Source: an uncultured Acidobacteriota bacterium (GTDB lineage Bacteria; Acidobacteriota; UBA6911). Taken from it: a stretch of 64,000 nucleotides of DNA. How positions within the stretch are numbered: position 1 is the stretch's first letter; each line of letters starts with the position of its first letter. Location of the stretch: NCBI GenBank assembly GCA_964474425.1, contig CAYYTC010000001.1, forward strand, positions 26,481 through 90,480, in the 5' to 3' direction. Shown here in pieces: positions 1-27,153 of the stretch. The notes beneath the pieces are model-generated. The model ran no database searches, was not told the DNA's origin, and saw only the letters and a list, made by a program, of their open reading frames with translations. The position numbers were made by a program, and so were the translations under genes.

Positions 1-703
1 GCAGGTCCATGGACAGGCCGTCGCTCAGGTCCATCATGCAGCGGACCAGGCCGGACTGAGCCAGCCATAGCCCGGCCTCGCAGCGCGCCTCCGGCCTTTG
101 ATGCGCTCGAACGGCCGCTTTTTGCGGCCCCGTGCGCACCCGTCCGAGGCCTTTCTCCAGCAGCTTAAAGCCTGCAGCCGACTGACCGAGGGTTCCGGTC
201 ACATACAGAAGGTCCCCCGCCTGCCCTCCTGAGCGATAGAGAATCCTCCGCCGCAGGGATTCTCCCAGGGCGGCAATGGAAATTGCTATGCCGCTTTCAG
301 AGCGCGAAAAATCTCCCCCGATCAGCGTTGCCCCCATGGAACCGCCCAGTTCCGTCAAACCGTCATAGAAATCCAGGATCCATTTCCGCGATATTTCCCC
401 GGGAAGCGCCAGCGAAACGGTATAGAAACGCGGCCTTGCGCCCATGGCGGCCAGATCGCTGAGGTTCACGGCGATCGATTTGCGACCCAGGTCTCCCGGA
501 GTCGTCCACCCGCGGCGGAAGTCGATATCTTCCAGCAGCATATCCGTGGTGATCAGCCAGTACTCCTCCGCATGCCTGGGACAAATTACGGCGGCGTCGT
601 CTCCGATCCCTTTCTTTACCAAAGGGTTTTTAGTCCGGTAGCGATCCTGCAGGAGGCGGATGAGCTCGTTTTCACTGTCGAGTTGCACTGGATTCCTTGA
701 CAT
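1..703 (-). CDS. thiL: thiamine-monophosphate kinase ThiL (C-terminus runs off the window edge)
   Basis: Manual minus-strand translation from the ATG at 703-701 gives MSRNPVQLDSENELIRLLQDRYRTKNPLVKKGIGDDAAVICP...LLEDIDFRRGWTTPGDLGRKSIAVNLSDLAAMGARP. The GDDAAV, DxxxEDxxF and NLSDLAAMGA motifs are typical of ThiL/AIR-synthase-related proteins. It is absent from the ORF track because it has no in-window stop. Confidence 0.7.
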   Translation of the reverse strand, partial: MSRNPVQLDSENELIRLLQDRYRTKNPLVKKGIGDDAAVICPRHAEEYWLITTDMLLEDIDFRRGWTTPGDLGRKSIAVNLSDLAAMGARPRFYTVSLALPGEISRKWILDFYDGLTELGGSMGATLIGGDFSRSESGIAISIAALGESLRRRILYRSGGQAGDLLYVTGTLGQSAAGFKLLEKGLGRVRTGPQKAAVRAHQRPEARCEAGLWLAQSGLVRCMMDLSDGLSMDL

Positions 704-853
704 TGGGACAATATAAATAAAGGGTCAGATTGCGGGCCGCGATGCCGGGGGACAAAAAAGCAGACACGAAATAGACGAAATCATTTGCTGCGCATTTCGT
801 GCATTTCGTGTTTGCTTTTTAAATCCGGCTGCCGCGCCGGGGCACACCCGCTG

Positions 854-1312
854 CTACTGTTTTTTTTCGAAAAGCTCATTGATCTCGGTCATGAATTCAC
901 TCACATCCTCGAATTCGAGATAAACAGAAGCGAAACGGAGATAAGCGACCTTGTCGATGCGTCTGAGTTCGGACAGAAGGATTTTCCCTATGTTCACCGA
1001 TTCCAGCTCGCGCTCAGGGCTTTCCTGAACGGTTTGTTCCACCTTGTCGACGATCTTCTCAAGCTGGGTGAGGCTGACCGGCCTCTTTTCGCATGCTTTG
1101 AGAAGCCCGTTGAGGATTTTATTGCGGTCGAACCTTTCCCTGCCGCCGTCCTTTTTCACCACCATATAGGGTATTTCATCGCTGCGCTCATAGCTGGTGA
1201 AACGACGCCCGCAGTTCAGGCACTGGCGCCTGCGCCGGATCGAATCTCCGTCGCGGCTCTCGCGCGAATCCACCACCCGGTCTTTTAAAAATCCACAAAA
1301 AGGGCATTTCAT
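854..1312 (-). CDS. nrdR: transcriptional repressor NrdR (Zn-ribbon plus ATP-cone)
   Basis: 152 aa, MKCPFCG...CLNCGRRFTSYER zinc ribbon followed by an ATP-cone. It matches the canonical NrdR length and motif. Confidence 0.9.
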   Translation of the reverse strand: MKCPFCGFLKDRVVDSRESRDGDSIRRRRQCLNCGRRFTSYERSDEIPYMVVKKDGGRERFDRNKILNGLLKACEKRPVSLTQLEKIVDKVEQTVQESPERELESVNIGKILLSELRRIDKVAYLRFASVYLEFEDVSEFMTEINELFEKKQ

Positions 1313-1724
1313 GGTGCGGGCCCTGGATTGAAGGTTCGGAAGCCGCCCTCTTTACTTCACGCCTGTTGCGGCACAAATTCTAGAATACAAAGATCTTGGA
1401 AGAATTCATAGGAAATTGTTTCAAAGGTCAAGAATAAACAAAGGCCCGGAGGTGCGGCGGCTGGAGACCGGGAGCCTGAATCCGTAACTCATCAAACTTC
1501 GAAGGTCCGGCAATCCGGTTGCTCAGGAATTATATGCACAAAGATTGCCGGCCATTCTGGCCATGTTCCTGCACTGCGGGCAAAATATGCCGGCAGGCCG
1601 GAAAATCCGTGCAGGCATAAATGCTGATTTTGTGCTATTTATTCATTAAACGATCCGGCTATGCAACACCGGGTACCCGGGACAAAGGCTTTTTGGGAAC
1701 TTTGATACATTCGATTTCGTTTCC

Positions 1725-2342
1725 ATGATTGAGAACAAGATAGTGGCCAAGGAGTTGCGAGTGCTCTCAGGCGATCACAAACTTGTAGAGCGCTGTATCC
1801 AAGGAGACGATGACGCCTGGGAAAGCCTGGTCAACTACTACGGGAAGCGTATCTATAACCTGAGCTACCGCTATACGAGCCGCAGAGATGAGGCCGAGGA
1901 TTTGACTCAGGAGGTGCTGATTCGAGTCTATCAAAACCTCCAGAGCTATCGTTCGGAGGCGGGAAGTTTTCAGAACTGGATTTTGAGAGTGGCGAGAAAC
2001 CTGGTCATCGATCACTACAGGCAAGGCCGCAGATATCCGCAGACGGCAGGGAGCGAAGAATTGGAAACCATGAATCTGAAGGATGAACGGACTCCAAATC
2101 CCCATCGCGCCGCAGAACAGTTGGAGGCGGCGAGTTTCCTTCAGGAAGGATTGCAGGCCCTCTCTCCCGAACTCAAAGAAGCCATTATACTTAGAGACCT
2201 GGAGGGGATGGCTTACCAGGAGATTGCCGACATGCTCGGTGTACCCGAAGGTACGGTTAAAAGCCGCATCAACCGCGGGCGTATCGAGTTGGCCAGGCTT
2301 TTGATGAAACGGCGCGCCCAACAGCAGGGCAGCCCCGTCTAG
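1725..2342 (+). CDS. ECF (sigma-24-type) RNA polymerase sigma factor
   Basis: 205 aa. Region 2 (DLTQEVLIRVYQNL) and region 4 (LSPELKEAIILRDLEGMAYQEIADMLGVPEGTVKSRINRGR) motifs of ECF sigma factors. Confidence 0.85.
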   Translation: MIENKIVAKELRVLSGDHKLVERCIQGDDDAWESLVNYYGKRIYNLSYRYTSRRDEAEDLTQEVLIRVYQNLQSYRSEAGSFQNWILRVARNLVIDHYRQGRRYPQTAGSEELETMNLKDERTPNPHRAAEQLEAASFLQEGLQALSPELKEAIILRDLEGMAYQEIADMLGVPEGTVKSRINRGRIELARLLMKRRAQQQGSPV

Positions 2343-2350
2343 GAGTCGTC

Positions 2351-2983
2351 ATGGATTGCCCAAGGGTTCAGGAACGGTTGAGCGAGTACATGGAATCCGG
2401 CCTCGCGGCTGAGCAAATGGATCAGGTTGGCGAGCATCTCAAAACCTGCCCTCAGTGCTCGGACCTGCTGGATGAAATGCGGGCCGTTGTCAAGCTGTGC
2501 CACAGCTTTCCATCCCTTGAAATAAACCTTGATGTTGTGGACAGAATCCTGCTTCGTACATCCGGACGTCCAAGGCGCCGATCCTTCCGTGAACAGCTGA
2601 AGCGCTATCTGGCGGGCCCGTTGCTCACCCCGCGGTTTGCGGTCGGCGCCGGTCTGGCGACCCTCTTCGTGGTTCTCCTGGCAAATTTCGCGGTTCCCCG
2701 CATTCCGGTGGCCTTATCGGGCATTTCCCCTGGGGAGGTGTTTCAGGTGATGGATCGGGGCGTACAGCGGCTATACGGCCAGGGGCTCAAGGCCTACGAC
2801 AAGACCAACGAATGGCAAGCCCAGTTCAACTATTTCAAAAACAATACGGTCAACAAACTGCGCTTCCTGATCGAGCGGATGGATGTGCCCATGGAGGGAA
2901 GAAAGAAATCGGAGGAGCCCGGACAGAGGAAAGAGCGGGCTCCGGCAGAAAAGAGGAGCGGTCTGCCGCTGTTGCCGGCATGA
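2351..2983 (+). CDS. anti-sigma factor, zf-HC2 type, single-pass membrane protein
   Basis: It begins 9 nt after the ECF sigma stop. It carries a putative zinc finger H-x3-C-x2-C (HLKTCPQC) and one TM helix (AVGAGLATLFVVLLANFAV). Confidence 0.6.
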   Translation: MDCPRVQERLSEYMESGLAAEQMDQVGEHLKTCPQCSDLLDEMRAVVKLCHSFPSLEINLDVVDRILLRTSGRPRRRSFREQLKRYLAGPLLTPRFAVGAGLATLFVVLLANFAVPRIPVALSGISPGEVFQVMDRGVQRLYGQGLKAYDKTNEWQAQFNYFKNNTVNKLRFLIERMDVPMEGRKKSEEPGQRKERAPAEKRSGLPLLPA

Positions 2984-3098
2984 CCGACACCCTATTGCCC
3001 GCGACTTCGAGCATTCCAGCAAGTCGCCCGCATTTTTCGAAGCGAAGATGCCCGGAGGAAAGACAGCGAGAAACAGAATCTCGGAGAGGAGATTGGAT

Positions 3099-3755
3099 AT
3101 GAAATGCTCATTTCACCCTGCAGCGGATTCCCAGGATTTTTGCAGCCTCTGCAACAAAGCCCTGTGCACTGAATGTGCGCACAGAGTGAAGAACAAGGTC
3201 TACTGCCAGAACTGCCTGACGGAAGGAGCCGAGTGGGCGGCTTCCATGAAGAATCTCCGGCTGCCGGCCGATGCTCCCAAAAGGGCCGCGCTCTGCGCCC
3301 TGATTCCCGGAATGGGCGCTGTCTACAACAGCGAATATATGAAAGGCCTCACCTATTTTGCCGTCTGGATCGGTCTGGTGATGATGGGCGACAAGGTGAA
3401 CGGAGTATTCGGTTTCGGCGCTTTTGCCTTCATTGTTTTTACCATGTTTGACGCCTATCGAACGGCCGAAACCAACGCCCGCAAACGACTGGAAGCCGGT
3501 TTCGCCTCCGCGAAGCTGCCGGGCCAGGACAAAACCAGCATCGGCTGGGGTGTCTTTCTGATAATTCTCGGCATCCTGTTCCTTCTGCAGAACCTCATTC
3601 CCTTTTACTTCCTGAACCGGTTGTGGCCCCTGATCTTCATCGCAATGGGCGCTTATCTGGTTTACCGGGCCATGAAGGAGCGGGAGAAGCGGAGCCGCGA
3701 TTCCGCCGGTCCGCTCACAATCCCCAAGGATTTCGGGCCGAAGGAGGATATCTGA
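3099..3755 (+). CDS. zinc-ribbon/B-box protein fused to a LiaF-like transmembrane module
   Basis: The internal ATG at 3099 has a GGAGAGGA ribosome-binding site 9 nt upstream; the track ORF 2883.. overlaps the anti-sigma gene in another frame. N-terminus: CSFHPAADSQDFCSLCNKALCTECAHRVKNKVYCQNC, two CxxC pairs. C-terminus: TM segments with the motif LIILGILFLLQNL...RLWPLIFIAMGAYLVYRA, shared with the next two genes. Confidence 0.55.
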   Translation: MKCSFHPAADSQDFCSLCNKALCTECAHRVKNKVYCQNCLTEGAEWAASMKNLRLPADAPKRAALCALIPGMGAVYNSEYMKGLTYFAVWIGLVMMGDKVNGVFGFGAFAFIVFTMFDAYRTAETNARKRLEAGFASAKLPGQDKTSIGWGVFLIILGILFLLQNLIPFYFLNRLWPLIFIAMGAYLVYRAMKEREKRSRDSAGPLTIPKDFGPKEDI

Positions 3756-3756
3756 A

Positions 3757-3972
3757 ATGTCCATTCGCACTCATAGCGGCGCACTCACTGCGGGCCTAAT
3801 ATTGATCGCCCTCGGAATAATTTTCCTGGCTGAAAATTTTTATGCGCCCTTCTCGGCGCTGCGGCTGATTTCCAAATACTGGCCGGTCATTTTCATCCTG
3901 ATCGGGGTGAAGAAGCTTGTGGAATATTTCACGTGGCCGGAAATCCCTCCCGCGCCTGATGAAGCGCCATAG
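3757..3972 (+). CDS. 71-aa membrane protein, minimal LiaF-TM-like module
   Basis: It starts 1 nt after the previous stop. LILIALGIIFLAENF...KYWPVIFILIGVKKLVEYF repeats the motif of its neighbours. Confidence 0.5.
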   Translation: MSIRTHSGALTAGLILIALGIIFLAENFYAPFSALRLISKYWPVIFILIGVKKLVEYFTWPEIPPAPDEAP

Positions 3973-3981
3973 GAGCGAACC

Positions 3982-5775
3982 ATGTCAAAGAGGCATCGTC
4001 CATCGCTGCTGGGAGCCCTGCTCTGGATCAGCTTCGGGGTTCTGTTCCTGCTGATGAATCTGGGAATCGGGCTCAACTTCTGGTCGGTTGCCAGCCGCTA
4101 CTGGCCGGTCCTGCTGATCCTGCTGGGCCTGGGAAAAGTGATCGATTACTACCTCAATAAGGACGCATTCTCGATCCGGATCGGGGAGATTTTGGGAATT
4201 CTCCTGCTGCTCCTTATCGGGTCGGCCATGACAAGAATGTCGGAAAGTCATTTCGTCCGCTTCGTCCGGGAGTTGCCCATAGAAATCGGCGGTACCTCCG
4301 TCCGGCCTGGCCAGTGGATAGGGGATTCCCACGCTTACACCGAGGAAGCCACATATCCGCTGGAACCTGCAAGGCCTATCCGCATCGAAAATTCCTACGG
4401 CCTGGTTGCCATAACCCCGGGAAACGACCGGGAGGTTCGCGTTCGTTTAAAAAAGGTCATTTATGCGGACGAGTCGCGCGCGAAAGACATTGCTTCGGAG
4501 ATCCGCCTGGAAACCGGAACGGAGGGTCAGGGCGGGCTTTCCGCAGACGCGAAGCCTGAAGCGAAGCCTGAAGCGGAGCCGGCTGCGAAACCGGATGCCG
4601 GCGTGTTCGTGTTGAGGACAAACCGTGAATCCCTAAGCTCGAAGCAATATGTTTTCAACACCGACATGGAAGTGCTGATCCCAAAAAACTCCGTGGTGGA
4701 AGTCAGAAATTCCTTCGGCGAGGTGCGGGCGGCAAATATCGACGGATCCATGAATCTCAGCACCACGCATCGCTCCCTTGAGATCCGCGACTGCATCGGC
4801 CAGTTCACCGTGTCCAACCGGTATGGGGAATCGCGTCTCACGAACCTGAAGGGGAACGTAGTCCTCGACAGCCGCGGCAGGGCTCAGCTCGAAGATATCA
4901 AGGGCGACGTAACCGTGACCAACGAATATTCGCCCCTGCAACTGCTCAACATCGAGGGAAAAGTTTCGATATCGATCACTGAAAACAATGTCCGGCTCGA
5001 AAAGGCGGCCGGACCCGTCACCATCGATGCCCGGGGCGCGGACGTCTATGTCGATGATTTGAAGGACAGCCTGAAAATCAATGCCAGCCACAGGAACGTC
5101 GAGATCTCCAATGTCGCCTCCAATGTCACCGCCGAGACGAGTTACGTCGCGCTCGTTTTGAAAAGCATACGGGGGAATGTCGAGATCCGCTCCAATTCCG
5201 ACAGCATCAGCGCCGCCGATATCGGCGGCTCCCTCAAACTGAAAGCCCGCGCCAGCGCCGTAAACGTCCATGAAATCCACGGGCCGCTCGACATCCAGAC
5301 CACGCTCAAAGACGTCGTCGTGACCGACGCATCCGATAACTGCGATATTACGAATGAATACGCCGATGTCAGCCTGACGGCGCGGAGCCTCGGCAAGAGC
5401 GGCATTCGTGTCGTAAACCGCAACGGCGCCATTGACCTGTCTCTTCCCGAAGGAGCTTCCTTCGTCATGGATGCCGTCTCCCGGAATGGGGACATCGAAT
5501 CCGGCTATTCGGGATTGGCTCCCGCCAGGAAGGAAGGAAATTCCTCGGTGCTCAAATCTACCGTGAAGTCGGGAGGGCCGAGGATCCTGCTGGAGACCGA
5601 ACACGACACCATCCAGATTACGCCTGCCACCGGTGATGAGGAGGATCGTGACGATCCGGAGGAGGAAACCAAAACCGTGCTGGAGTTGAGGCTGGGACAC
5701 GGTGAGAACTGGCCCGCAATTTTCGGGGCAATCCGCCGCACTGCGGACCGAATCCAGAAAGGAGTCGCGCGATGA
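3982..5775 (+). CDS. LiaF-like membrane protein with a C-terminal DUF4097 beta-repeat ('putative adhesin') domain
   Basis: 597 aa. The N-terminal TM motif (LLWISFGVLFLLMNLGIGLNF...RYWPVLLILLGLGKVIDYY) is followed by a long run of short beta-strand repeats (VEVRNSFGEV..., NVVLDSRG..., DVTVTNEYS...) typical of DUF4097/LiaF C-terminal domains. Confidence 0.65.
   Translation: MSKRHRPSLLGALLWISFGVLFLLMNLGIGLNFWSVASRYWPVLLILLGLGKVIDYYLNKDAFSIRIGEILGILLLLLIGSAMTRMSESHFVRFVRELPIEIGGTSVRPGQWIGDSHAYTEEATYPLEPARPIRIENSYGLVAITPGNDREVRVRLKKVIYADESRAKDIASEIRLETGTEGQGGLSADAKPEAKPEAEPAAKPDAGVFVLRTNRESLSSKQYVFNTDMEVLIPKNSVVEVRNSFGEVRAANIDGSMNLSTTHRSLEIRDCIGQFTVSNRYGESRLTNLKGNVVLDSRGRAQLEDIKGDVTVTNEYSPLQLLNIEGKVSISITENNVRLEKAAGPVTIDARGADVYVDDLKDSLKINASHRNVEISNVASNVTAETSYVALVLKSIRGNVEIRSNSDSISAADIGGSLKLKARASAVNVHEIHGPLDIQTTLKDVVVTDASDNCDITNEYADVSLTARSLGKSGIRVVNRNGAIDLSLPEGASFVMDAVSRNGDIESGYSGLAPARKEGNSSVLKSTVKSGGPRILLETEHDTIQITPATGDEEDRDDPEEETKTVLELRLGHGENWPAIFGAIRRTADRIQKGVAR
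4548..4600 (+). repeat. short tandem codon repeat encoding a KPEAKPEAEPAAKPDA low-complexity linker
   Basis: gcgaagcctgaa is repeated in tandem inside the 3982..5775 CDS, sitting as a linker between the TM and beta-repeat parts. Confidence 0.4.
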
Positions 5776-6635
5776 AAAGAGCAACCTGGATGATATGCAG
5801 CCTGCTGGTGCTTTCCGGATGCGGCTTTGACGAGCGTGTACCCATTGAAATGACATCGCTGAACCAGGCTCAACCTCTCGATAAGGAAAAAAGCCTGAAT
5901 TCAACGATCCGCTTTGGAATCGGTTCCCTGGAAATCACAGCCGGGGATAAAGAGTCCGAGCTGTATTCCTTCGACCTGGAATACGACAAGGCGAGCTATG
6001 CCCCGGATTTCCGCTTTGATACCGCCCTCGCGGGGGAGGAGGGCCGGTTTTCCTTTGACCTCCCAAGCACGCGACGATCAGGCGTGCGGAGGCAGAGTCA
6101 GAGCAACAGGCTTCGTCTGGAATTCAATGAATCCGTCCCCCTGGATCTGACCGTAAACGCCGGAGTGGGAGACGCCCGCCTTTCTCTGTCGGGGATGAAG
6201 CTGACCCGCCTCAATTTCGAGGCCGGCGTGGGAGGCGCAAAACTATCTGTTTACAAACCGAATCCGGTTCCCTGTGAACATATCAGCGTAAAGAACGGCG
6301 TCGGCAGCATTGAGGCGGTCGGCCTGGGAAATCTCAATTTTCGAGAGTTTGAATACGAGGGGGGCGTCGGCGGCGCGGATCTGGATTTCACGGGCGAATG
6401 GAGCCGCGATGCCGACATCCGCATCCAGGTCGGGGTGGGCGGAGTCAATATCAAGATGCCGCGGGGAATCGGAGTCAAGGTTGAAGCCGAAAAAAATTTC
6501 CTGAGCGGCGTGCACCTCGACGGCTTCAATCAGCGGAATTCCTCTTACTACAGCGCAAATTACGACACCGCGGCGATCAAGGTTTCCATTCGCGTCCAAA
6601 CCGGCATCGGCGGCCTGAAGATCAGCTGGCTCTAG
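5772..6635 (+). CDS. lipoprotein with a toast-rack/DUF4097-like beta-repeat domain
   Basis: ATGA overlap with the upstream gene. Signal peptide plus lipobox MKRATWMICSLLVLSGC. Repeated GVGxAxL/GVGGxxI beta-strand units. Confidence 0.6.
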   Translation: MKRATWMICSLLVLSGCGFDERVPIEMTSLNQAQPLDKEKSLNSTIRFGIGSLEITAGDKESELYSFDLEYDKASYAPDFRFDTALAGEEGRFSFDLPSTRRSGVRRQSQSNRLRLEFNESVPLDLTVNAGVGDARLSLSGMKLTRLNFEAGVGGAKLSVYKPNPVPCEHISVKNGVGSIEAVGLGNLNFREFEYEGGVGGADLDFTGEWSRDADIRIQVGVGGVNIKMPRGIGVKVEAEKNFLSGVHLDGFNQRNSSYYSANYDTAAIKVSIRVQTGIGGLKISWL

Positions 6636-6892
6636 CATCAGTCCCAAACTCTTGCCTTCAGACAGGCAACGATCCCGCATTTTTTAGTGAGGACGCCTCT
6701 CCGTTTTTTTTGTGAGGGCGGCTCTCCAGAGCCGTCCGAAGGGCGACTGACTGGTTATGGGCTTAGCCGGACCGGTCTGGAGACCGGTCCTCACCATTTA
6801 TTATTACTGGACGGGTCCCGGCGAACGGCCCTCGCCAAAACCTGGTGAAGGGTCGTAGCTGCCTGTTATTTTTGTGGGATAATACTATGTAA

Positions 6893-7840
6893 ATGAAAAT
6901 CTACGGTTGGGCCGGCCTGCTGCTCCTGATTGTCTCCGAATACTGCCTCATCCGCAAAATTGAACCTGTCTCCACATGGTTCTACTGTTTCGCCTGGTGG
7001 TCCTATATCCTGCTGGCTGATAACCTGCTTCTGAAGCTGCGTGGCCGATCGCTTCTTACCAACAGACGGCGCGAACTATGGTATATGCTGCCGCTCTCCG
7101 TTTTCATCTGGCTGCTTTTTGAAGCCTATAATTTCCGCATTCAGAACTGGTCCTACAATGTCGTCCCCATGCACCTTTGGCTGCGCTGGTTTGCCTATGC
7201 GCTGTCGTTCGCAACCGTGCTCCCTGCCCTCTTCATCACTTCGGATCTCGTGGAGCCGCTCTTCGGTACCTCGTCTCAATCCATGGCCTCGGAGTGCCGT
7301 CCGGCCCTTCCCGGCAACACGACGCGTTCGTCCGCCGTGTTTATTGCGCTCGGCCTGATAATGACGACCGCCCCCCTCGTGTGGCCGCGTTATTTTTTCG
7401 CTTCTGTCTGGCTGGGGCCCATTTTGCTTTTCGATCCTCTGCTGGAGAGGTCGGGGATGCAAAGCCTCTCGCAAAGCATAGTTTCCGGAGACCGCCGGCG
7501 CGTGTGGAGTCTGATGCTGGGAGGGCTTATTTGCGGCCTGATCTGGGAATTGTTTAATTTCTGGGCGGGCTCCAAGTGGATCTACACGGTACCGTTTTTC
7601 GGCAAATGGAAAGTGTTTGAGATGCCGGTCCTGGGATTTTTAGGATTTCCTCCTTTCGCCCTGGAATGCTGGATGCTGTATCATTGGATGCGGATCCTCC
7701 CGAGGCGCATGAACTCGCCGGCGGCACGCACGGCGTGGTGGATTTGCCTTGGGATTTTGTCCCTGGCGATATTTCGCGGGATAGACATCCACACCGTGGG
7801 CCGTCTCCCGGGGATTGCAGCGCCGGGTCTCTTCAAATAA
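6893..7840 (+). CDS. polytopic integral membrane protein of unknown function
   Basis: 315 aa with multiple hydrophobic, Trp-rich segments. No recognisable family. Confidence 0.5.
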   Translation: MKIYGWAGLLLLIVSEYCLIRKIEPVSTWFYCFAWWSYILLADNLLLKLRGRSLLTNRRRELWYMLPLSVFIWLLFEAYNFRIQNWSYNVVPMHLWLRWFAYALSFATVLPALFITSDLVEPLFGTSSQSMASECRPALPGNTTRSSAVFIALGLIMTTAPLVWPRYFFASVWLGPILLFDPLLERSGMQSLSQSIVSGDRRRVWSLMLGGLICGLIWELFNFWAGSKWIYTVPFFGKWKVFEMPVLGFLGFPPFALECWMLYHWMRILPRRMNSPAARTAWWICLGILSLAIFRGIDIHTVGRLPGIAAPGLFK

Positions 7841-7854
7841 AGGAGCGGTTGCCG

Positions 7855-8673
7855 ATGCGGTTCTTCATGATTTTGATGGGCTCCCTGTTGCTTCCGATGG
7901 TGCGGTCCCAGGAACCTGCCAAAACGCAGGTCCCCGAAGCACCCTATGTCGAACGCGAAGAAAAGCAATTCAATTTTTTCCCTGGCGGCAAGCTCGAGAT
8001 CACATCCGGGGTGCCGGGCAACATCACGATTGTGGGCTGGCAGAAGGGATCCATCCGCATGGAGGCGGAAAAAATCGTTTATTACCATTCCGCGGAGCGG
8101 GCCGTGCTCCTGCTCAAGGCTCATCCCATCAGGGTGCGCTGGAATCAGACCGGTTCCACGATCCGCATCGCGGAGCCGACGCAGCCGGACGCGACCATGG
8201 AATACAACCTTACCCTGTATGTCCCGAAGGAGAAGACGGACATCCGCAGCAGGATGAAGCGGGGTGATTTTTCCATCGAATCGGTGAACGGCTGGATTGA
8301 AATTTCGACCAGCGAAGGCAGTCTGGAAGCCAAATCGATGGAGGGATACTTTTCCGGCGAGACTTTAAGGGGAGATATTTCCGTCGAGATGTCCGGCAAG
8401 AACTGGCGAGGACTGGAATTTGCCGGACTGACCCAGCTCGGTTCGGTGGACGTGAAACTCCCTCCCGACTACTCCGCAGCCCTTCAGCTGGAGACGCGCG
8501 ACGGTACCATCACCATCGACTACCCTCCCCAAGTCGTCGAGGGCGAGCCCGAACCGCCGCAAATCGTCGTCCGGAAGAACTCGCAATCCTTGAAGGGCGC
8601 TGTAGGCAACGGCGGCGCGCCCATAAAGCTGGTTACCTATGCGGGAGATATCAGGCTGTCCCGGAATGAATAG
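7855..8673 (+). CDS. secreted DUF4097 beta-repeat protein
   Basis: The internal ATG at 7855 has an AAAGGAG ribosome-binding site; the track ORF 7666.. overlaps the previous gene. Signal peptide MRFFMILMGSLLLPMVRSQEP. DUF4097-like repeats (IESVNGWIEISTSEGSLEA..., ISVEMSGKN...). Confidence 0.6.
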   Translation: MRFFMILMGSLLLPMVRSQEPAKTQVPEAPYVEREEKQFNFFPGGKLEITSGVPGNITIVGWQKGSIRMEAEKIVYYHSAERAVLLLKAHPIRVRWNQTGSTIRIAEPTQPDATMEYNLTLYVPKEKTDIRSRMKRGDFSIESVNGWIEISTSEGSLEAKSMEGYFSGETLRGDISVEMSGKNWRGLEFAGLTQLGSVDVKLPPDYSAALQLETRDGTITIDYPPQVVEGEPEPPQIVVRKNSQSLKGAVGNGGAPIKLVTYAGDIRLSRNE

Positions 8674-10183
8674 CATGCACAGGATACCGGTAGACGGCGA
8701 ATCACTGACTCTCGAGACGCTAGCGCGCGTGGCGCTCGACTTCGCAGAGGTGGAATTGAACGCCGAAGCCCGCCGGAGAGTCCTCGCAAGCCGGGCGGTC
8801 ATAGACCGCGCGCTGGACAGCAACCTCCCGGTCTATGGTGTGACTACGGGATTCGGCAAGCTCAGCGATGTCCGTATACCTCACGATGAAATCCGTCAGC
8901 TGCAGCTGAACCTGCTGCGCAGTCACGCATGCGGCGCGGGGGAGCCCCTATCGGAGCCCGAGGTCCGGGCGGCGATCCTGCTACGCGCCAATTCGCTCGC
9001 CAAGGGCTTCTCCGGCGTCCGGCCCGAAATCATCGAAATGTTGCTCGCCGTCCTGAACAACAGGCTTTGCCCGGTCGTCCCTTCGCGCGGATCCGTGGGC
9101 GCCAGCGGAGATCTCGTGCCGTCCGCCCACATGGCGCTGGCGTTGATCGGAGAAGGGGAATCTTTTTACCGCGGGGAACGGCTCCCCGGATCCGCAGCTT
9201 TGCAGCGCTCAAGGCTTTCCCCGCTCGAGCTGCAGGCAAAAGAAGGGCTTTCATTGCTCAACGGCACTCAGTTCATGACAGCCGTGGGCGGGCTGGTGAT
9301 CGAGCGCGCGCGCAGCCTCATGGACACGGCAGATGTAGCGGCGTCTCTTACACTGGAGGTTCTGCTTGGCAGCGTGGTCGCCGACGACTCGCGTATCCAC
9401 CAGGTGCGGCCGCACCCCGGCCAGCGCAAGACCGCAGCCAACATCACCCGTATGCTGCGCAACAGCGCCATCGTGGAATCACACCACGATTGCGGGCGCA
9501 TCCAGGATGCCTACTCGCTGCGCTGCGTCCCCCAGGTTCACGGCGCCGTGCGGGACGCGCTGGGCCATATCCGGGAGATACTCACCCGGGAGATGAACAG
9601 CGCGACCGATAATCCGCTGGTTTTCGCGGACGGAGGGGCGATCCTTGCGGGCGGCAATTTTCACGGCGCACCCGTGGGCTATGCGCTCGACTACGCGGCG
9701 CTGGTTCTGGCCGACCTGGCAAGCATCTCCGAACGGCGCCTGGAACGCCTGGTCAATCCCGATTTGAGCGGCATGCCCGCCTTCCTGAGCCCGAGCCCCG
9801 GATTATCCTCGGGTTACATGATGCTTCAGGTCATGGTCGCTTCCCTGGTGTCGGAGAACAAAATCCTGGCGCACCCCGCCTCTGTGGACAGCATCCCCAC
9901 ATCGGGCAACAAAGAGGATCACGTGAGCATGGGCATGACGGCGGCATTGAAACTGCGGTCCGTGGCCGACAACCTGGAAACCGTGCTGGCCGCGGAAATT
10001 CTCGCTGCCTGCCAGGGGGTGGAATTTCGCAAACCGCTGGAGCCGGGCGAAGGGACCCGGAAGGCCTATGCCCTCGTCCGCAAGGCTATAGAGCCCCTTG
10101 CGAATGACAGGGATTCCTCGGCCGACATCGAAATCCTGCGCCGGCTGATCCGCCGGGGCAGTTTTGCGGAATTGCTTGCCTGA
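8666..10183 (+). CDS. hutH: MIO-dependent ammonia-lyase, histidine ammonia-lyase family
   Basis: About 505 aa with the SVGASGDLVPSAHMA MIO-forming Ala-Ser-Gly motif. The start overlaps the upstream stop (ATGAATAG). An alternative ATG lies at 8675. Confidence 0.85.
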   Translation: MNSMHRIPVDGESLTLETLARVALDFAEVELNAEARRRVLASRAVIDRALDSNLPVYGVTTGFGKLSDVRIPHDEIRQLQLNLLRSHACGAGEPLSEPEVRAAILLRANSLAKGFSGVRPEIIEMLLAVLNNRLCPVVPSRGSVGASGDLVPSAHMALALIGEGESFYRGERLPGSAALQRSRLSPLELQAKEGLSLLNGTQFMTAVGGLVIERARSLMDTADVAASLTLEVLLGSVVADDSRIHQVRPHPGQRKTAANITRMLRNSAIVESHHDCGRIQDAYSLRCVPQVHGAVRDALGHIREILTREMNSATDNPLVFADGGAILAGGNFHGAPVGYALDYAALVLADLASISERRLERLVNPDLSGMPAFLSPSPGLSSGYMMLQVMVASLVSENKILAHPASVDSIPTSGNKEDHVSMGMTAALKLRSVADNLETVLAAEILAACQGVEFRKPLEPGEGTRKAYALVRKAIEPLANDRDSSADIEILRRLIRRGSFAELLA

Positions 10184-10306
10184 AACAACCCGTCCTTTTT
10201 ACAATCTCGACGATTCCAGGCCGCTGAGGCCAATTTTTTTCTCTAAGAAAATCTGCGCTGAAACGTTGTTGCGTATAGGGAAGCCGGAAAAGCGAATGAG
10301 GGCCGC

Positions 10307-10825
10307 ATGAAGACTCCTGACTCAAGCTGGATTCCATCCGTTCTGGCCGAATTCGAAAAACCGCTGATACGCTATGCGGCTCACATCACCGGAGACAGGG
10401 AAAAGGCGCGCGAAGTCGTACAGGACACCTTCCTGAAGCTTTGTCTCCAGAAGCCGGCTGAAATCCGGGATCATCTGACGCAATGGCTTTATACCGTCTG
10501 CCGCAACCGCGCGTTGGATGTGCTTCGAAAGGAAAGAAAGATGACCGCAATCAGCGATGCGCAGATGCACTCCCGCTCCGGACCGGAGTTCCCCTCCGCC
10601 CTGGAGAAAGAGGAGCAGCTCACAGAAGTGCTGAAGGTGCTCGACACTCTCCCCCCAAACCAGCAGGAGGTCCTGAGGTTGAAGTTCCAGGGCGACCTGA
10701 GTTATCTGGAGATCAGCCGGATCACGAATCTTTCGGTAAGCAATGTCGGCTTTCTTATCCACACCGGACTCAAAAGCATTCGGGAGAGAGTCCGGAACCG
10801 GCCGGCCATAAGGAGGGTGAAATGA
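10307..10825 (+). CDS. ECF sigma factor (second copy in the window)
   Basis: 172 aa. Region 2 (REVVQDTFLKL) and region 4 (LPPNQQEVLRLKFQGDLSYLEISRITNLSVSNV) motifs. Confidence 0.85.
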   Translation: MKTPDSSWIPSVLAEFEKPLIRYAAHITGDREKAREVVQDTFLKLCLQKPAEIRDHLTQWLYTVCRNRALDVLRKERKMTAISDAQMHSRSGPEFPSALEKEEQLTEVLKVLDTLPPNQQEVLRLKFQGDLSYLEISRITNLSVSNVGFLIHTGLKSIRERVRNRPAIRRVK

Positions 10826-13191
10826 AGATGGACGCCAATGATCCGCGATGGACCGCCTACGCTCTCGGCGAAATTGCGGACGAGAAGGAAAGGGCCGAAA
10901 TCGAGGGCATCCTGGCAGAATCCCCTGAAATGCGCCGGCTCGTGGAAGAGATCCGCGAGACTGCCGGATTGTTGAGGGAGGATCTGCGGGCAGAGCCCGT
11001 CCTTCCGCTGACCCAAGCCCAGCATGAAAAGATCGAATCCCGCGCGGGCGCCGGCAGAAGCTGGCTCATGCGGAAGCCGGTATGGATTTTGGCCGGCGCC
11101 GCTGCTGCTCTGTTGCTGGCTTTTTCAGTGATTGTCCGCCACCCGGGACGCCAGGAAACAGCTGAGCTGCGGCAGAAAAGTAATCCGGTGATGACGGCTG
11201 AAGTAAAAGAACCTGCCCGAATCCAGGATCTTTCCGGGCAACTCAGAGAAAAAGCGCCTTCGTCCGAGCCCGCACAGAGTGCAAGCGCCTCCATGGATGT
11301 CAAAACCAACGAGCGGCATACGCCGGATCCCGCAGTCTCCAAAGACCGAAACGAAACATCCGTTGCCCCGCAAGGGACAGGTGCCTCCGCAGAGATAGGC
11401 CGTAGGGCCGAAGCGGAGCGGGCGAAGGGTGAAGAATATAAAGCCAAAGCGGACGCCATGCTGGCAGCCGCGGTTCCGGCGCCTGAAGGGCAGAAGAAAC
11501 AGCCCGAGAATGTCATAGCGGGTGAACTGTCTGAAGAACGGAAATCGCTCCCGGAAGCCTTGACGGCGGCTGCGCAGACCTCGTCCGCGCAGCGGCAGCC
11601 TCCAGGTCCAAATGCTCCTTCCCAAACGCGCGTAAAAGGGCTTGCCGCGGGCGTCGTCGCCGGGTCCCTGATGAGCAGCGTCGGCGGGGCATCGGCGGGC
11701 GAATCGATGCCGCCGAGACCGCGAAGGCGTCCGTGGGACGGACCGCCTCCAACCCCTCGTCAGCGGGGTTCGTTTAACACCGAAACCTATGACTACATCA
11801 GTGACAATCCTTTCCTGGATGCGGCGCAGAATCCGCTGTCCACTTTCTCCATCGACGTGGACACCGCATCGTATTCGAACGTGCGCCGCTTCCTGGAAAG
11901 CGGAAAACTGCCTCCAAAGGACGCGGTTCGCGTTGAGGAGCTCGTGAACTATTTTGATTACGACTACAAAGGTCCCAAGGACGAGAAACCATTTGCGGTC
12001 GATTTTGAACTCACCGAAGCTCCCTGGAAACCGGAGCACAAGCTTCTGCGCATCGGATTGAAAGGGCGCGAAATAAGCCCCGGCAAGCGTCCGGCGGGCA
12101 ACCTGGTATTCCTGCTCGACGTATCCGGATCGATGGCCGACGAAAACAAGCTTCCGCTCGTGAAGGAATCGATGCGCCTGCTCGTGGACCAGCTGACGGA
12201 ATCGGACCGCGTGGCGATTGTCGTCTATGCCGGAGACACGAGCCTTATTCTGCCCTCCACCAGCGGCGACCAGAAGGAGAAGATTCGCCGGGCCATCGAC
12301 TGCCTGCGGGCCGGCGGCAGCACCAACGGCGCCTCCGGCATCCAGCTTGCCTACAAAACTGCCAGGGAAAATTTCATGAAAGGCGGAACAAACCGCGTGA
12401 TACTGGCGACCGACGGCGATTTCAATGTCGGCGTCTCCAACCGCGGAGATTTGACGCGCCTGATCGAGGACCAGACGAAAAGCGGAATCTATCTCAGCGC
12501 CCTGGGATTCGGGATGGGCAACTATAAGGACGCGACCCTGGAATTGCTGGCAAACAAGGGCCGCGGCAACTATGCCTACATCGACACTCTGCGCGAGGCA
12601 AAGAAGGTCCTGGTCGAGCAGATGAACGCAACCCTGATCACGATTGCCAAAGACGTTAAAATACAGGTCGAATTCAACCCGCGACGCGTGAGTTCCTACC
12701 GTCTGATTGGTTACGAAGACAGGATGATGCCCAAGGAGGATTTCAACGACGACGACAAAACAGCAGGCGCGGTAGGGGCCGGTCATTCGGTGACGGCCCT
12801 TTACGAGCTTGTTCCCGCAGCTGCGGCGGCTTCCGCGCCGAGCGTGGATCCTCTGAAGTATCAAAAGCCGGCCCAGCCCTCCGCCTCCGCGGAAAGTAAC
12901 GAAATCCTGACGGTAAAAATCCGCAGCAAGGAGCCGGAGAAAGACAAGAGTATTCTCTCCGAGTTCGCGGTCAAGGATTCGGCGGAGAAATTCAGCAGGG
13001 CTTCGCAGGATTTTAAATTTGCCGCGGCTGTGGCCGCTTTCGGAATGGTGCTGCGCGACTCCCCGCACAAAGGGAGCTCCAACCTGGAAAGCGTGCTGGA
13101 ATGGGCAAAGGAAGGGCGGGGAACCGACAGCCAGGGTTACCGCCAGGAATTCATCCGGCTGGTACACCGCGCCATTTCAATCTCTTTCTGA
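10822..13191 (+). CDS. membrane anti-sigma factor fused to a YfbK-like von Willebrand factor A domain
   Basis: The ATG at 10822 overlaps the sigma-factor stop (ATGA) in the frame of track ORF 10483... N-terminus: MKMDANDPRWTAYALGEIADEKERAEIEGIL, an anti-sigma N-terminal domain, then one TM helix. C-terminus: VWA with the MIDAS motif DVSGSM and a YfbK/DUF3520-type tail. Confidence 0.7.
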   Translation: MKMDANDPRWTAYALGEIADEKERAEIEGILAESPEMRRLVEEIRETAGLLREDLRAEPVLPLTQAQHEKIESRAGAGRSWLMRKPVWILAGAAAALLLAFSVIVRHPGRQETAELRQKSNPVMTAEVKEPARIQDLSGQLREKAPSSEPAQSASASMDVKTNERHTPDPAVSKDRNETSVAPQGTGASAEIGRRAEAERAKGEEYKAKADAMLAAAVPAPEGQKKQPENVIAGELSEERKSLPEALTAAAQTSSAQRQPPGPNAPSQTRVKGLAAGVVAGSLMSSVGGASAGESMPPRPRRRPWDGPPPTPRQRGSFNTETYDYISDNPFLDAAQNPLSTFSIDVDTASYSNVRRFLESGKLPPKDAVRVEELVNYFDYDYKGPKDEKPFAVDFELTEAPWKPEHKLLRIGLKGREISPGKRPAGNLVFLLDVSGSMADENKLPLVKESMRLLVDQLTESDRVAIVVYAGDTSLILPSTSGDQKEKIRRAIDCLRAGGSTNGASGIQLAYKTARENFMKGGTNRVILATDGDFNVGVSNRGDLTRLIEDQTKSGIYLSALGFGMGNYKDATLELLANKGRGNYAYIDTLREAKKVLVEQMNATLITIAKDVKIQVEFNPRRVSSYRLIGYEDRMMPKEDFNDDDKTAGAVGAGHSVTALYELVPAAAAASAPSVDPLKYQKPAQPSASAESNEILTVKIRSKEPEKDKSILSEFAVKDSAEKFSRASQDFKFAAAVAAFGMVLRDSPHKGSSNLESVLEWAKEGRGTDSQGYRQEFIRLVHRAISISF

Positions 13192-26948: not shown

Positions 26949-27153
26949 TCATTGTTTCAAAGACTGGGCGATAAAAAATGCTGCAAGCTTTTTATTTACA
27001 ATAAATTATTTGATTAGTCCCAAAGTCAGAAGTATAGCACAAGCTGCCCTCAAAATGGAGCAAAAATAAGCGATTTAATTTAATATTAAGGTATTGATAT
27101 TATTGAACTTACATCGATGCTTCGGACGTCCCGGAACCGGCCGCCGTCGCCGT

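Follow-up and report, generated by a model that had tools for sequence, protein, structure and literature searches.

A Lia-type membrane module coupled to an ECF sigma/anti-sigma pair in Acidobacteriota

In the 64-kb window analysed here (the whole stretch of DNA, 64 000 nucleotides), the genes of a Lia-type membrane module lie downstream of those for an ECF sigma factor and a zf-HC2 anti-sigma factor, all on the + strand, and the module is genuinely coupled to this pair. The evidence points to one autoregulated operon, from about 1696 to 6635, that comprises the sigma, anti-sigma and Lia-like genes: a promoter motif is conserved 5′ of the sigma gene and occurs only once in the window, the gaps between the genes are tight, and a structured, U-rich stretch follows the last of them, a lipoprotein gene. 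As an explanation of the whole, we favour, with modest confidence, an autoregulated operon (1761–6635) whose Lia-like proteins modulate the release of the sigma factor.

The sigma factor, its promoter and its anti-sigma factor

The sigma gene (1761..2342, + strand) encodes 193 aa, with Pfam matches to Sigma70_r2 (1e-19), r4_2 (1e-16) and Sigma70_ECF, and scores 113.6 bits against the NCBIfam sigma70-ECF model (cut-off 42.9). Its best named NCBIfam matches are SigE and SigW, the latter second best at 126.6 bits; both are under the equivalog cut-offs. From the sequence, the start is most likely the GTG at 1761, behind a conserved Shine–Dalgarno AAGGAG (1749–1754), and close-clade loci keep the arrangement AAGGAG-N6-GTGCTCTC. 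The gene as called in locus L003 encodes 192 aa. The ATG at 1725, the start in the open reading frame list, is missing in many loci.

Upstream is an ECF-type promoter, GGAACTT-N15-CGTT (1696..1721, + strand; −35 GGAAC at 1696–1700, −10 CGTT at 1718–1721), with a predicted transcription start near 1727–1730. It is the sole strict match in the window, where 0.32 would be expected by chance. Among 83 loci, the identical motif with the identical 15-nt spacer stands 5′ of the sigma gene in 66 and further upstream of it in 4 more (total 66–70); strict matches overall number 87 in 1.28 Mb. The original prediction had suggested a check for ECF promoters upstream of 3099 and 3982; a search of the window with the strict motif found none at either place. 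On present evidence the genes at 3099 and 3982 are probably transcribed from the sigma promoter, and a promoter of another type could lie within the 115-nt gap 5′ of 3099.

The anti-sigma gene (2351..2983, + strand) encodes a single-pass protein with a cytoplasmic zf-HC2 domain (Pfam 8.9e-8; ligands H29-x3-C33-x2-C36) and, by hydropathy, one TM helix at residues 97–115, beyond which come a conserved extracytoplasmic region of ~60 aa and a charged tail. Mean identity is 0.54 for residues 116–175 versus 0.53 for the cytoplasmic domain. Because the extracytoplasmic part is as conserved as the sigma-binding domain, the comparison suggests that it has a dedicated partner.

Hairpins, zinc fingers and toastrack domains

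The three consecutive genes that follow each encode a LiaI-LiaF TM hairpin above the curated Pfam cut-off (27 bits for these families). The two-helix motif had been noticed from the sequence alone, in a double CxxC, a 71-aa and a DUF4097-fused version; profile searches find it significant, and Pfam matches and conserved ligands bear out all three versions. The 71-aa protein aligns with the N-terminus of the 597-aa protein (36% identity, 58 aa, E 2e-11) and with the zinc-finger protein (45% identity over 38 aa, E 3e-6), and by these alignments the common motif is not a chance resemblance.

The first of the three proteins (3099..3755, + strand; LiaF-TM 34.9 bits, LiaI-LiaF-like_TM1 32.8 bits) begins with a B-box-like double zinc finger with the ligands C3-x2-H-x8-C-x2-C-x4-C-x2-C-x9-C-x2-C/H. 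Two or three TM segments with a PGxGxxY motif come next, after which a basic linker leads to the LiaI-LiaF TM hairpin and the chain ends in a basic tail. Its start codon is preceded by GGAGAGGAG, and the N-terminal MKCS(Y/F)HP is conserved. Of the ~75 distinct orthologues listed, every one except L054 retains the eight zinc ligands; in L054 the reading frame seems to change ahead of the last pair, which is lost. The second, a LiaI-like mini protein of 71 aa (3757..3972, + strand), consists of the TM hairpin alone (LiaF-TM 44.3 bits; LiaI-LiaF-like_TM1 38.4 bits, 1.9e-11) and in distant clades carries a CxCxxC motif.

Such modules might make the system a membrane-located sensor of thiol, zinc or redox state. 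When oxidants, electrophiles or metals stress the cell, loss of zinc from the HxxxCxxC anti-sigma and the eight-ligand zinc finger, or disulfide formation within them, would set the sigma factor free, as with RsrA/sigma-R; in distant clades the CxCxxC motif of the mini protein would participate too. Two operon proteins (and a third in distant clades) do have conserved Cys/His-rich cytoplasmic modules, and the anti-sigma weakly matches the NCBIfam RsrA-type model (4.4e-5, below cut-off). However, zinc is structural in most zf-HC2 anti-sigmas and not a redox switch, no thioredoxin or other thiol-repair gene was found within or next to the operon in three relatives, and the exported beta-helix proteins would be left unexplained. 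We regard a redox sensor as improbable.

The third protein (597 aa; 3982..5775, + strand) scores 30.9 bits for LiaF-TM and 35.7 bits for DUF4097 (cut-off 22.9). After the LiaF-TM hairpin it has one more TM helix and then a long DUF4097 (toastrack) beta-helix, which an acidic linker joins to a helix at the C-terminus. The AlphaFold2 model (pLDDT 82.6) places helices at 9–26, 33–58 and 67–88, the beta-helix at 116–548 and the last helix at 578–596. In a Foldseek search of the PDB its best match was 4QRK, the toastrack exemplar, followed by DUF4097/DUF2807 ‘putative adhesin’ structures. The membrane side of the beta-helix is ambiguous: a count of three TM helices would put it on the non-cytoplasmic side, the charges that follow TM3 are neutral in their distribution, and toastrack domains have been argued to be intracellular (Ravi et al. 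mSystems 2024, PMC11237479).

The start of the next gene (5772..6635, + strand) overlaps the preceding stop by 4 nt. It encodes a LiaF-type toastrack lipoprotein (Toast_rack_N 35.3 bits; LiaF-like_C, DUF2154, 32.5 bits) with the lipobox L-S-G-C17, in which G16 and C17 are invariant in 12 orthologues and Gly/Cys are at least 90% conserved. The original prediction had equated LiaF with DUF4097, but the C-terminal domain of LiaF is DUF2154/LiaF-like_C and DUF4097 is LiaG-type; between the lipoprotein and the two DUF4097 proteins there is no detectable sequence relationship, the fold class alone being common. From the sigma gene through the lipoprotein gene, the intergenic spacings are 8, 115, 1, 9 and −4 nt. 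The following region (6636..6892, + strand) is rich in hairpins and U-runs, with an RNA fold of −104.7 kcal/mol (z = −4.06 versus shuffles) and no Rfam match, and is the probable end of the sigma operon.

As first noted, the lipoprotein gene is followed, downstream of the sigma/anti-sigma pair, by genes for a membrane protein and for a secreted DUF4097 protein. The first (315 aa; 6893..7840, + strand) is a multi-pass protein of an unnamed family, modelled by AlphaFold2 at pLDDT 85, that has neither a Pfam or NCBIfam match nor a PDB fold match to the model; its 3772 homologues are all listed as hypothetical. The second (272 aa; 7855..8673, + strand) has a signal-peptide-like N-terminus, falls just below the Pfam cut-off for DUF4097 (2.5e-4, 20.9 bits) and far below that for NCBIfam LiaG (2.9e-5), and aligns with the 597-aa family by HHalign (probability 96.8%, E 3e-10). 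In most of the close-clade loci where both were found, the 6893 gene immediately precedes the one for the secreted DUF4097 protein. Its distance from the operon varies, and several loci yielded no copy of it; it is a partner of the 7855 gene whose attachment to the operon is loose.

Export signals are present on two of the three beta-helix proteins, and the nearest solved structures are labelled ‘putative adhesin’, which would fit a cell-surface or adhesin-like structure in which these proteins are exported structural or adhesive components and the sigma factor merely times their production, with no role for them in stress signalling. These labels, however, are unverified structural-genomics names; the repeats, anchors and secretion-system genes typical of adhesins are absent, and the partner proteins with hairpins and zinc fingers belong to the inner membrane and the cytoplasm. 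We consider an adhesin very improbable.

Conservation and known relatives

The 83 loci, all acidobacterial, were fetched via the toastrack gene, and their sigma factors range from 45% to 98% identity. The order sigma, anti-sigma, zinc-finger-LiaF-TM, LiaF-TM-toastrack is found in 82 of them; the remaining locus is on a contig of 2.2 kb, not long enough to judge gene order. The block is therefore conserved in relatives and, together with the conserved promoter, upholds the proposed wiring of the membrane module to an ECF sigma factor rather than a two-component system. In most inspected loci, distant clades included, a mini-hairpin ORF lies between the zinc-finger-LiaF-TM and LiaF-TM-toastrack genes. 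Among the fetched loci, the lipoprotein gene occurs only in the close clade (L001–L036). The extra toastrack genes differ between clades, and the extra exported toastrack proteins are an addition of the present lineage. In three relatives, the genes recorded up to 10 kb from the operon include no histidine kinase, response regulator or PspA, and none of 10 PspA-sized ORFs in the window matches PspA.

Of the known systems, liaIH-liaGFSR of Bacillus subtilis (related: vraTSR of Staphylococcus aureus) likewise has a small LiaI-like hairpin, a DUF4097 LiaG-type protein, a DUF2154 LiaF-type toastrack, a LiaF-TM anchor and an autoregulated, envelope-linked locus. Here, in contrast, LiaS kinase, LiaR regulator and LiaH/PspA are absent from the locus and regulation is by an ECF sigma/anti-sigma pair; the zinc-finger protein is an extra component, the toastrack is anchored by 3 TM helices rather than 4, the organism is diderm, and NCBIfam LiaG/LiaF matches are far below equivalog cut-offs. 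Bacillus sigma-W controls yvlABCD, i.e. an ECF sigma factor driving a toastrack/PspC operon. The sigma-W regulon (yvlABCD, pspA) is alike in that a SigW/SigE-like ECF sigma controls a membrane-associated toastrack protein; its targets, however, are unlinked to sigW whereas ours share the sigma operon, and the PspC, SHOCT-like and PspA partners are absent here. Escherichia coli rpoE-rseABC also has an autoregulated ECF sigma, a single-pass anti-sigma and a GGAACTT-type promoter, and the accessory modulators transcribed along with them include a periplasmic one, but these resemble ours in neither fold nor sequence and the likeness is a functional analogy only.

A model for the operon

In the model that we favour, the single-pass zf-HC2 anti-sigma would at rest keep its sigma factor tethered to the inner membrane, and a membrane or envelope perturbation would inactivate this anti-sigma. 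The freed sigma factor would act at the promoter 5′ of its own gene, giving more sigma and anti-sigma together with the four co-transcribed Lia-like membrane proteins (the B-box-like zinc-finger protein, the 71-aa hairpin, the LiaF-TM-anchored DUF4097 beta-helix and the toastrack lipoprotein). These may assemble beside the anti-sigma via their common TM hairpins and there help to sense the signal and modulate the release of sigma by feedback, as LiaF restrains LiaS or RseB restrains cleavage of RseA, with the beta-helices as large interaction surfaces at the membrane. The domain content, the layout of the operon, its conserved promoter and the co-occurrence of the genes are observed; the nature of the stress signal, physical contact between these proteins and the anti-sigma, the direction in which they modulate it and the membrane side of the 597-aa beta-helix are inferred.

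Co-transcription of this obligate kind would be just as expected of Lia-like proteins that are only outputs of the regulon. They might be pure effectors, the sigma/anti-sigma pair alone sensing the signal, and as its main regulon shield or mend the membrane, for instance by anchoring or scaffolding a PspA/IM30 protein encoded elsewhere. Their genes sit downstream in a sigma-driven operon, and so are induced together with the sigma factor; LiaI-type hairpins are membrane anchors in Bacillus, LiaI anchoring LiaH, and sigma-W drives pspA and controls the toastrack gene yvlB; and clade-variable extra toastrack genes are as expected of accessory effectors. Such a role is not exclusive of modulation, but it sits less easily with linkage in every sufficiently long locus across the phylum, with a linked cytoplasmic zinc finger that has no obvious protective role, or with PspA being unrecorded near the operon in the three relatives and absent among the window ORFs tested. 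We think it rather unlikely that they are effectors alone.

Operons of sigma, anti-sigma, LiaI-LiaF-TM and Toastrack genes were predicted by a genome survey (Ravi et al. mSystems 2024, PMC11237479, Table S4, Text S2.4), with examples in Granulicella mallensis (AEU34960.1, AciX8_0610) and, as a B-box-LiaI-LiaF-TM variant, Acidobacterium (ACO33311.1), for which a lia-like signal routed through the sigma factor was proposed. The present locus is a further case, alike in phylum, in the order sigma, zf-HC2 anti-sigma with TM, TM+LiaI-LiaF-TM, LiaI-LiaF-TM+TM+Toastrack, in the B-box fusion and in the proposed logic. Relative to the operons in those parts of the survey, the LiaF-type lipoprotein inside the operon and the nearby membrane and secreted DUF4097 pair are additions of the present lineage; the mini hairpin gene and the promoter featured here are not given in the rows compared; and at least two toastracks are exported here, whereas the survey argues for an intracellular domain. 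Overall, the observation that led to this analysis is confirmed and its interpretation partly supported: by analogy, an envelope-stress or phage-shock-like function may be expected, and the ‘unusual composition’ first proposed holds relative to Firmicutes only, since ECF sigma plus Lia-like module, as described by Ravi et al. (PMC11237479), is the standard arrangement in Acidobacteriota.

Domain composition of the locus

Downstream of nrdR (854-1312, identified with Pfam and divergent to the block) lie eight closely spaced genes on the + strand. The first two encode an ECF sigma factor (ORF 1725-2342, start corrected to a GTG at 1761; Sigma70_r2, 1e-19, and r4_2, 1e-16) and an anti-sigma factor (2351-2983) with a zf-HC2 domain, one transmembrane (TM) helix and ~95 residues past the membrane. 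These are followed by a 218-aa zinc-finger protein (3099-3755; start preceded by GGAGAGGAG) in which a Cys/His-rich N-terminus precedes hydrophobic segments and, at the C-terminal end, a LiaI-LiaF TM hairpin; a 71-aa mini protein (3757-3972) that is scarcely more than such a hairpin; a 597-aa protein (3982-5775) that adds a third TM helix and a DUF4097 domain to the TM hairpin; and a lipoprotein (5772-6635; lipobox LSGC) whose Toast_rack_N and LiaF-like_C domains both exceed the Pfam cut-off. After a 257-nt gap come a 315-aa multi-pass membrane protein with no family match (6893-7840) and a 272-aa secreted protein (7855-8673) with a signal-peptide-like N-terminus, in which DUF4097 scores slightly below the Pfam cut-off. 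These domains and this layout agree with the original prediction, apart from its equation of LiaF with DUF4097: LiaF is DUF2154, and DUF4097 is LiaG-type.

The two-helix motif that had been noticed in three consecutive genes proved real, both by Pfam gathering scores and by mutual similarity. Against the LiaI-LiaF-like_TM1 and LiaF-TM models (PF18917 and PF22570), the zinc-finger protein scored 32.8 and 34.9 bits and the mini protein 44.3 and 38.4 bits, all above the gathering scores; the 597-aa protein exceeded the gathering score for LiaF-TM (30.9 bits) and scored 26.1 bits, slightly below the 27 required, with the TM1 model. The mini protein matched the N-terminus of the 597-aa protein with 36% identity over 58 aa (E 2e-11), and the zinc-finger protein matched the mini protein with 45% identity over 38 aa (E 3e-6). 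All three are LiaI-LiaF-TM proteins, and the basic residues flanking their hairpins fit an N-in, C-in orientation. Many Terriglobales- and Acidiferrales-type mini proteins have an N-terminal CxCxxC(R) and a C-terminal S(S/T)EGH, neither of which is found in the mini protein of the window; this form is seen in locus L039 (7757-7975), in equivalent ORFs of L040, L041, L043, L055, L069 and L070, and in others.

The N-terminus of the zinc-finger protein has an eight-ligand, two-zinc pattern, C-x2-H-x8-C-x2-C-x4-C-x2-C-x9-C-x2-C/H, which recurs in all but one of ~75 distinct orthologues; in the exception, L054, the last ligand pair is lost after an apparent frame change. The relevant passages of Ravi et al., a survey predicting sigma/anti-sigma/LiaI-LiaF-TM/Toastrack operons, label this domain a B-box (PMC11237479). 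Its matches to B-box families in Pfam were sub-threshold (ANCHR-like_BBOX, E 0.02, 15.4 bits, cut-off 27), and a PDB sequence search for B-box relatives gave no significant match. A homologue search returned close acidobacterial relatives alone and is uninformative on spread outside the phylum. One could read the locus, with this protein in mind, as a thiol or zinc sensing system; we regard that as improbable, and rank it below a reading in which the Lia-like membrane proteins serve as effectors only.

The DUF4097 domain of the 597-aa protein scores 35.7 bits (Pfam cut-off 22.9). An AlphaFold2 model of the protein (pLDDT 82.6, built on 72 aligned sequences) begins with three helices, continues as a long beta-helix (residues 116-548) and ends in a C-terminal helix; its best Foldseek match in the PDB is 4QRK, the structure that defines the toastrack fold, followed by DUF4097/DUF2807 'putative adhesin' entries. 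The secreted protein aligns with the 597-aa family in HHalign (96.8%, E 3e-10) and is a true paralogue of its C-terminal cap. The lipoprotein has no significant sequence relationship to these two DUF4097 proteins and is of the LiaF/DUF2154 branch within the same fold class. The toastrack proteins of the locus are thus members of the toastrack fold (DUF4097 / DUF2154 / DUF2807). That they have a surface-structure role seems very unlikely, and we again place this reading behind the effector-only one.

Export signals are present in the lipoprotein (conserved, with G16 and C17 invariant) and in the secreted paralogue. In the 597-aa family the N-terminus is strongly basic (mean 2.6 Lys/Arg per 8 residues, zero acidic); since three TM helices follow it, helix parity would place the beta-helix (450 residues) outside the cytoplasm. 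This assignment is uncertain: the charges after TM3 are balanced, and the charge distribution does not fix topology. A possible disulfide between C271 and C454, both invariant, was dropped as a topology argument, the two cysteines being ~180 residues apart along the beta-helix. In the text of Ravi et al. that deals with them, toastracks are taken to be intracellular (PMC11237479), a claim with which the lineage-specific exported toastracks are in tension.

Sigma factor, anti-sigma factor and promoter

The sigma factor consists of regions 2 and 4 alone, without region 3 or 1.1. It matched Sigma70_ECF as well as Sigma70_r2 and r4_2 in Pfam and scored 113.6 bits against the NCBIfam ECF superfamily model TIGR02937 (cut-off 42.9); it is an ECF (group 4) sigma-70 factor. 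Among the matches listed, all NCBIfam equivalogs (SigE, SigW, RpoE and others) were below cut-off. The anti-sigma factor matched zf-HC2 with 32.5 bits (cut-off 22.2) and is of class I (zf-HC2 / ZAS-type), with an N-terminal H29-x3-C33-x2-C36 domain and a membrane anchor at residues 97-115. Its short extracytoplasmic region is conserved to the same degree as the sigma-binding domain, which hints at a specific partner.

A predicted ECF promoter, GGAACTT-N15-CGTT, lies upstream of the sigma gene at 1696-1721 (GGAAC from 1696, the motif shared with other loci occupying 1697-1721). It is the sole strict match across the 64-kb window, where shuffles gave 0.32. Alignment of the region upstream of the sigma gene yielded GAAC(T/C)T-N15-CGT(T/A) in 66 loci with an invariant spacer, and the motif lies further upstream in 4 Bryobacterales-type loci; strict matches totalled 87 in 1.28 Mb. 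As AAC -35 and CGT -10 elements are the canonical ECF promoter architecture, it is very probable that the operon is driven by its own sigma factor.

Downstream of the promoter, AAGGAG-N6-GTGCTCTC is kept in the loci of the close clade (L001-L036), and many loci lack the ATG at 1725. We therefore place the start of the sigma factor at GTG 1761; the resulting 193-aa product agrees with the 192-aa gene called in L003, an annotated relative. The apparent N-terminal extension (1725-1760) is a 5' leader bearing the conserved Shine-Dalgarno AAGGAG, and gene callers take the upstream ATG in several relatives (e.g. giving a 204-aa sigma factor in L001).

The anti-sigma gene begins 8 nt past the sigma stop, and the gaps from the sigma gene through the lipoprotein gene (8, 115, 1, 9 and -4 nt) argue for a single transcript that starts at ~1728 and runs through the lipoprotein gene to its end. 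A check for ECF promoters upstream of 3099 and 3982 had been proposed; the motif scan found none at either position, nor upstream of 6893. A relaxed match at 3977-4000 was dismissed as it overlaps the start codon, and a match at 27105 as it has no gene ahead on its strand. A simple scan for sigma-70-type promoters and intrinsic terminators gave a yield no higher than shuffles.

Two further observations concern transcription. In Terriglobales-type relatives the sigma coding region itself contains another strict match to the promoter motif (GAACTTGCGCG...CGTA), over the E-L-A-R codons of region 4.2, ~20-80 nt before the end of the sigma match and just upstream of the anti-sigma gene (L038, L042, L046-L048, L051, L057, L058, L060, L071 and L080; absent from the window). 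Coding constraint may account for it, or it may be a promoter internal to the operon. After the lipoprotein gene, the sequence at 6636-6892 has a much stronger fold than its shuffles (z = -4.06), with hairpins and U-runs; it is probably the operon terminator, though unusually long and structured, and an Rfam search of window positions 1-12000, which include it, gave no match.

Conservation across relatives and neighbouring genes

Homologues of the 597-aa protein form an acidobacterial family, many of them sharing 50-65% identity, and the annotation of three relatives (L001-L003) shows the same block adjoining nrdR. A one-genome-per-species scan gave 80 loci, all from metagenome-assembled genomes. 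Nearly all bear an Acidobacteriota label, among them Terriglobales, Bryobacterales and 'Acidiferrales', and a few contigs bear that of another phylum (Omnitrophota, Sphingobacteriales, Limnocylindrales and Binatus). The relatives' labels include one of subdivision gp18 and one of gp1, and L011 matches the window at 93-98% identity.

When the eight window proteins were compared with all 83 loci by tblastn, the sigma gene was detected in 82, the one without it being a 2.2-kb contig, and the zinc-finger-LiaF-TM gene in all 83; the anti-sigma gene went undetected in about one-third of the distant-clade loci. Gene order was identical wherever genes were detected. Identities of the sigma factor lay between 45% and 98%. 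No other protein of the block is as well conserved (~75-80% vs ~50-60% for the others). A small hairpin ORF is present between the zinc-finger and toastrack genes in most loci inspected, distant clades included, where its sequence is divergent; because this slot is occupied, we count five genes in the core.

The lipoprotein gene is restricted to the close clade. In most close-clade loci where both were found, the membrane-protein gene lies immediately before the secreted DUF4097 gene. The distance of this pair to the operon varies, and several loci gave no match to the membrane protein; the two are best seen as a second unit, loosely tied to the operon. The membrane protein has 3772 homologues, which make up a large family that has no name and no Pfam domain in any member. 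Its N- and C-terminal halves align, with the invariant E77/N80 matching E219/N222, and by eye look like an internal duplication; a confident AlphaFold2 model (pLDDT 85, pTM 0.86) had no PDB match.

Abutting the secreted DUF4097 gene is a histidine/aromatic ammonia-lyase gene (8639-10183; Lyase_aromatic, E 9e-197), with a likely start at 8675, 1 nt past the DUF4097 stop. The same adjacency, with larger gaps, is found in L001 and L003; the lyase gene is missing in L002. The region 10307-13191 contains a second ECF sigma gene of the window. L001 and L002 have a matching second sigma gene, then a large protein with CarboxypepD_reg, vWF_A/VWA and YfbK_C domains, of which the long window ORF ending at 13191 is the counterpart by position.

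Relation to known systems and proposed mechanism

No kinase or receiver domain was found within 10 kb in L001-L003 or in the window operon. Likewise, no PspA/IM30 or PspC was recorded within 10 kb in L001-L003, the operon proteins had no match to them, and ten PspA-sized ORFs in the window were all unrelated to PspA. The NCBIfam models for LiaF_C_term (28.5 bits, cut-off 57) and LiaG (18.8-23.4 bits, cut-off 285) stayed below cut-off. With the defining kinase and regulator, and PspA, absent at the searched loci, the locus falls outside the LiaFSR / VraTSR and Psp systems; it has domains, and probably also logic, in common with LiaFSR and Psp.

That a Lia module could be connected to a sigma factor is already in print. 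Text S2.4 of Ravi et al. describes an Acidobacterium variant in which LiaI-LiaF-TM is fused to an N-terminal B-box, and the authors propose a lia-operon-like working routed through the sigma factor (PMC11237479). The main text of the ECF classification of Casas-Pastor et al. 2021 mentions none of LiaF, DUF4097, DUF2154 and PspC, and its three passages on Acidobacteria contain nothing on such a gene context (PMC7826278). Literature searches for DUF4097 with ECF and anti-sigma returned no paper, those for DUF4097 with 'sigma factor' returned Firmicutes work and Ravi et al. only, and no experimental study of such operons was found; the operon belongs to a computationally described, experimentally uncharacterised group. 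A lead, and no more than that, is the induction by high sugar (osmotic) stress of a gene annotated sigma-W in Granulicella sp. WH15 (PMC7074687).

The overall interpretation, a Lia module wired to an ECF sigma factor, was partly borne out. The wiring itself (operon, promoter and linkage in 82 of 83 loci) is well supported; what we infer is the signal, a role of the proteins as modulators and the compartment in which the large beta-helix lies. The reading we favour, with somewhat better than even confidence, is of an autoregulated ECF envelope-stress operon in which the Lia-like membrane proteins would be both sigma-dependent products and accessory sensors or feedback modulators of the anti-sigma factor, in the manner of LiaF acting on LiaS, or RseB on RseA. 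The main rival, that the Lia-like proteins are effectors only, is a lesser but real prospect. A further reading, which we offer tentatively, is that a periplasmic beta-helix scaffold informs a minimal anti-sigma factor of the state of the envelope, with the LiaF-TM hairpins and the cytoplasmic zinc finger as relays. If true, a periplasmic toastrack scaffold would be a mode of ECF control so far undescribed.

Acidobacteria rank with the most abundant bacteria of soils and, to our knowledge, almost nothing is known of how they sense envelope damage. Being syntenic and phylum-wide, the operon could be their principal envelope-stress pathway; its presence across the phylum, its stable neighbourhood beside nrdR and the conservation of its sigma factor, the best of the block, mark it out as a strong contender for a central stress pathway. 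Beyond the predictions of Ravi et al., the present work contributes a five-gene core found across the phylum, a promoter motif, the corrected start of the sigma gene, the lineage-specific exported toastracks and the tension of these with an intracellular placing of toastracks. Motif, start and core make the published prediction directly testable in cultured Granulicella or Acidobacterium, and such tests would reveal what the LiaF-TM/toastrack module does without a two-component system or PspA.
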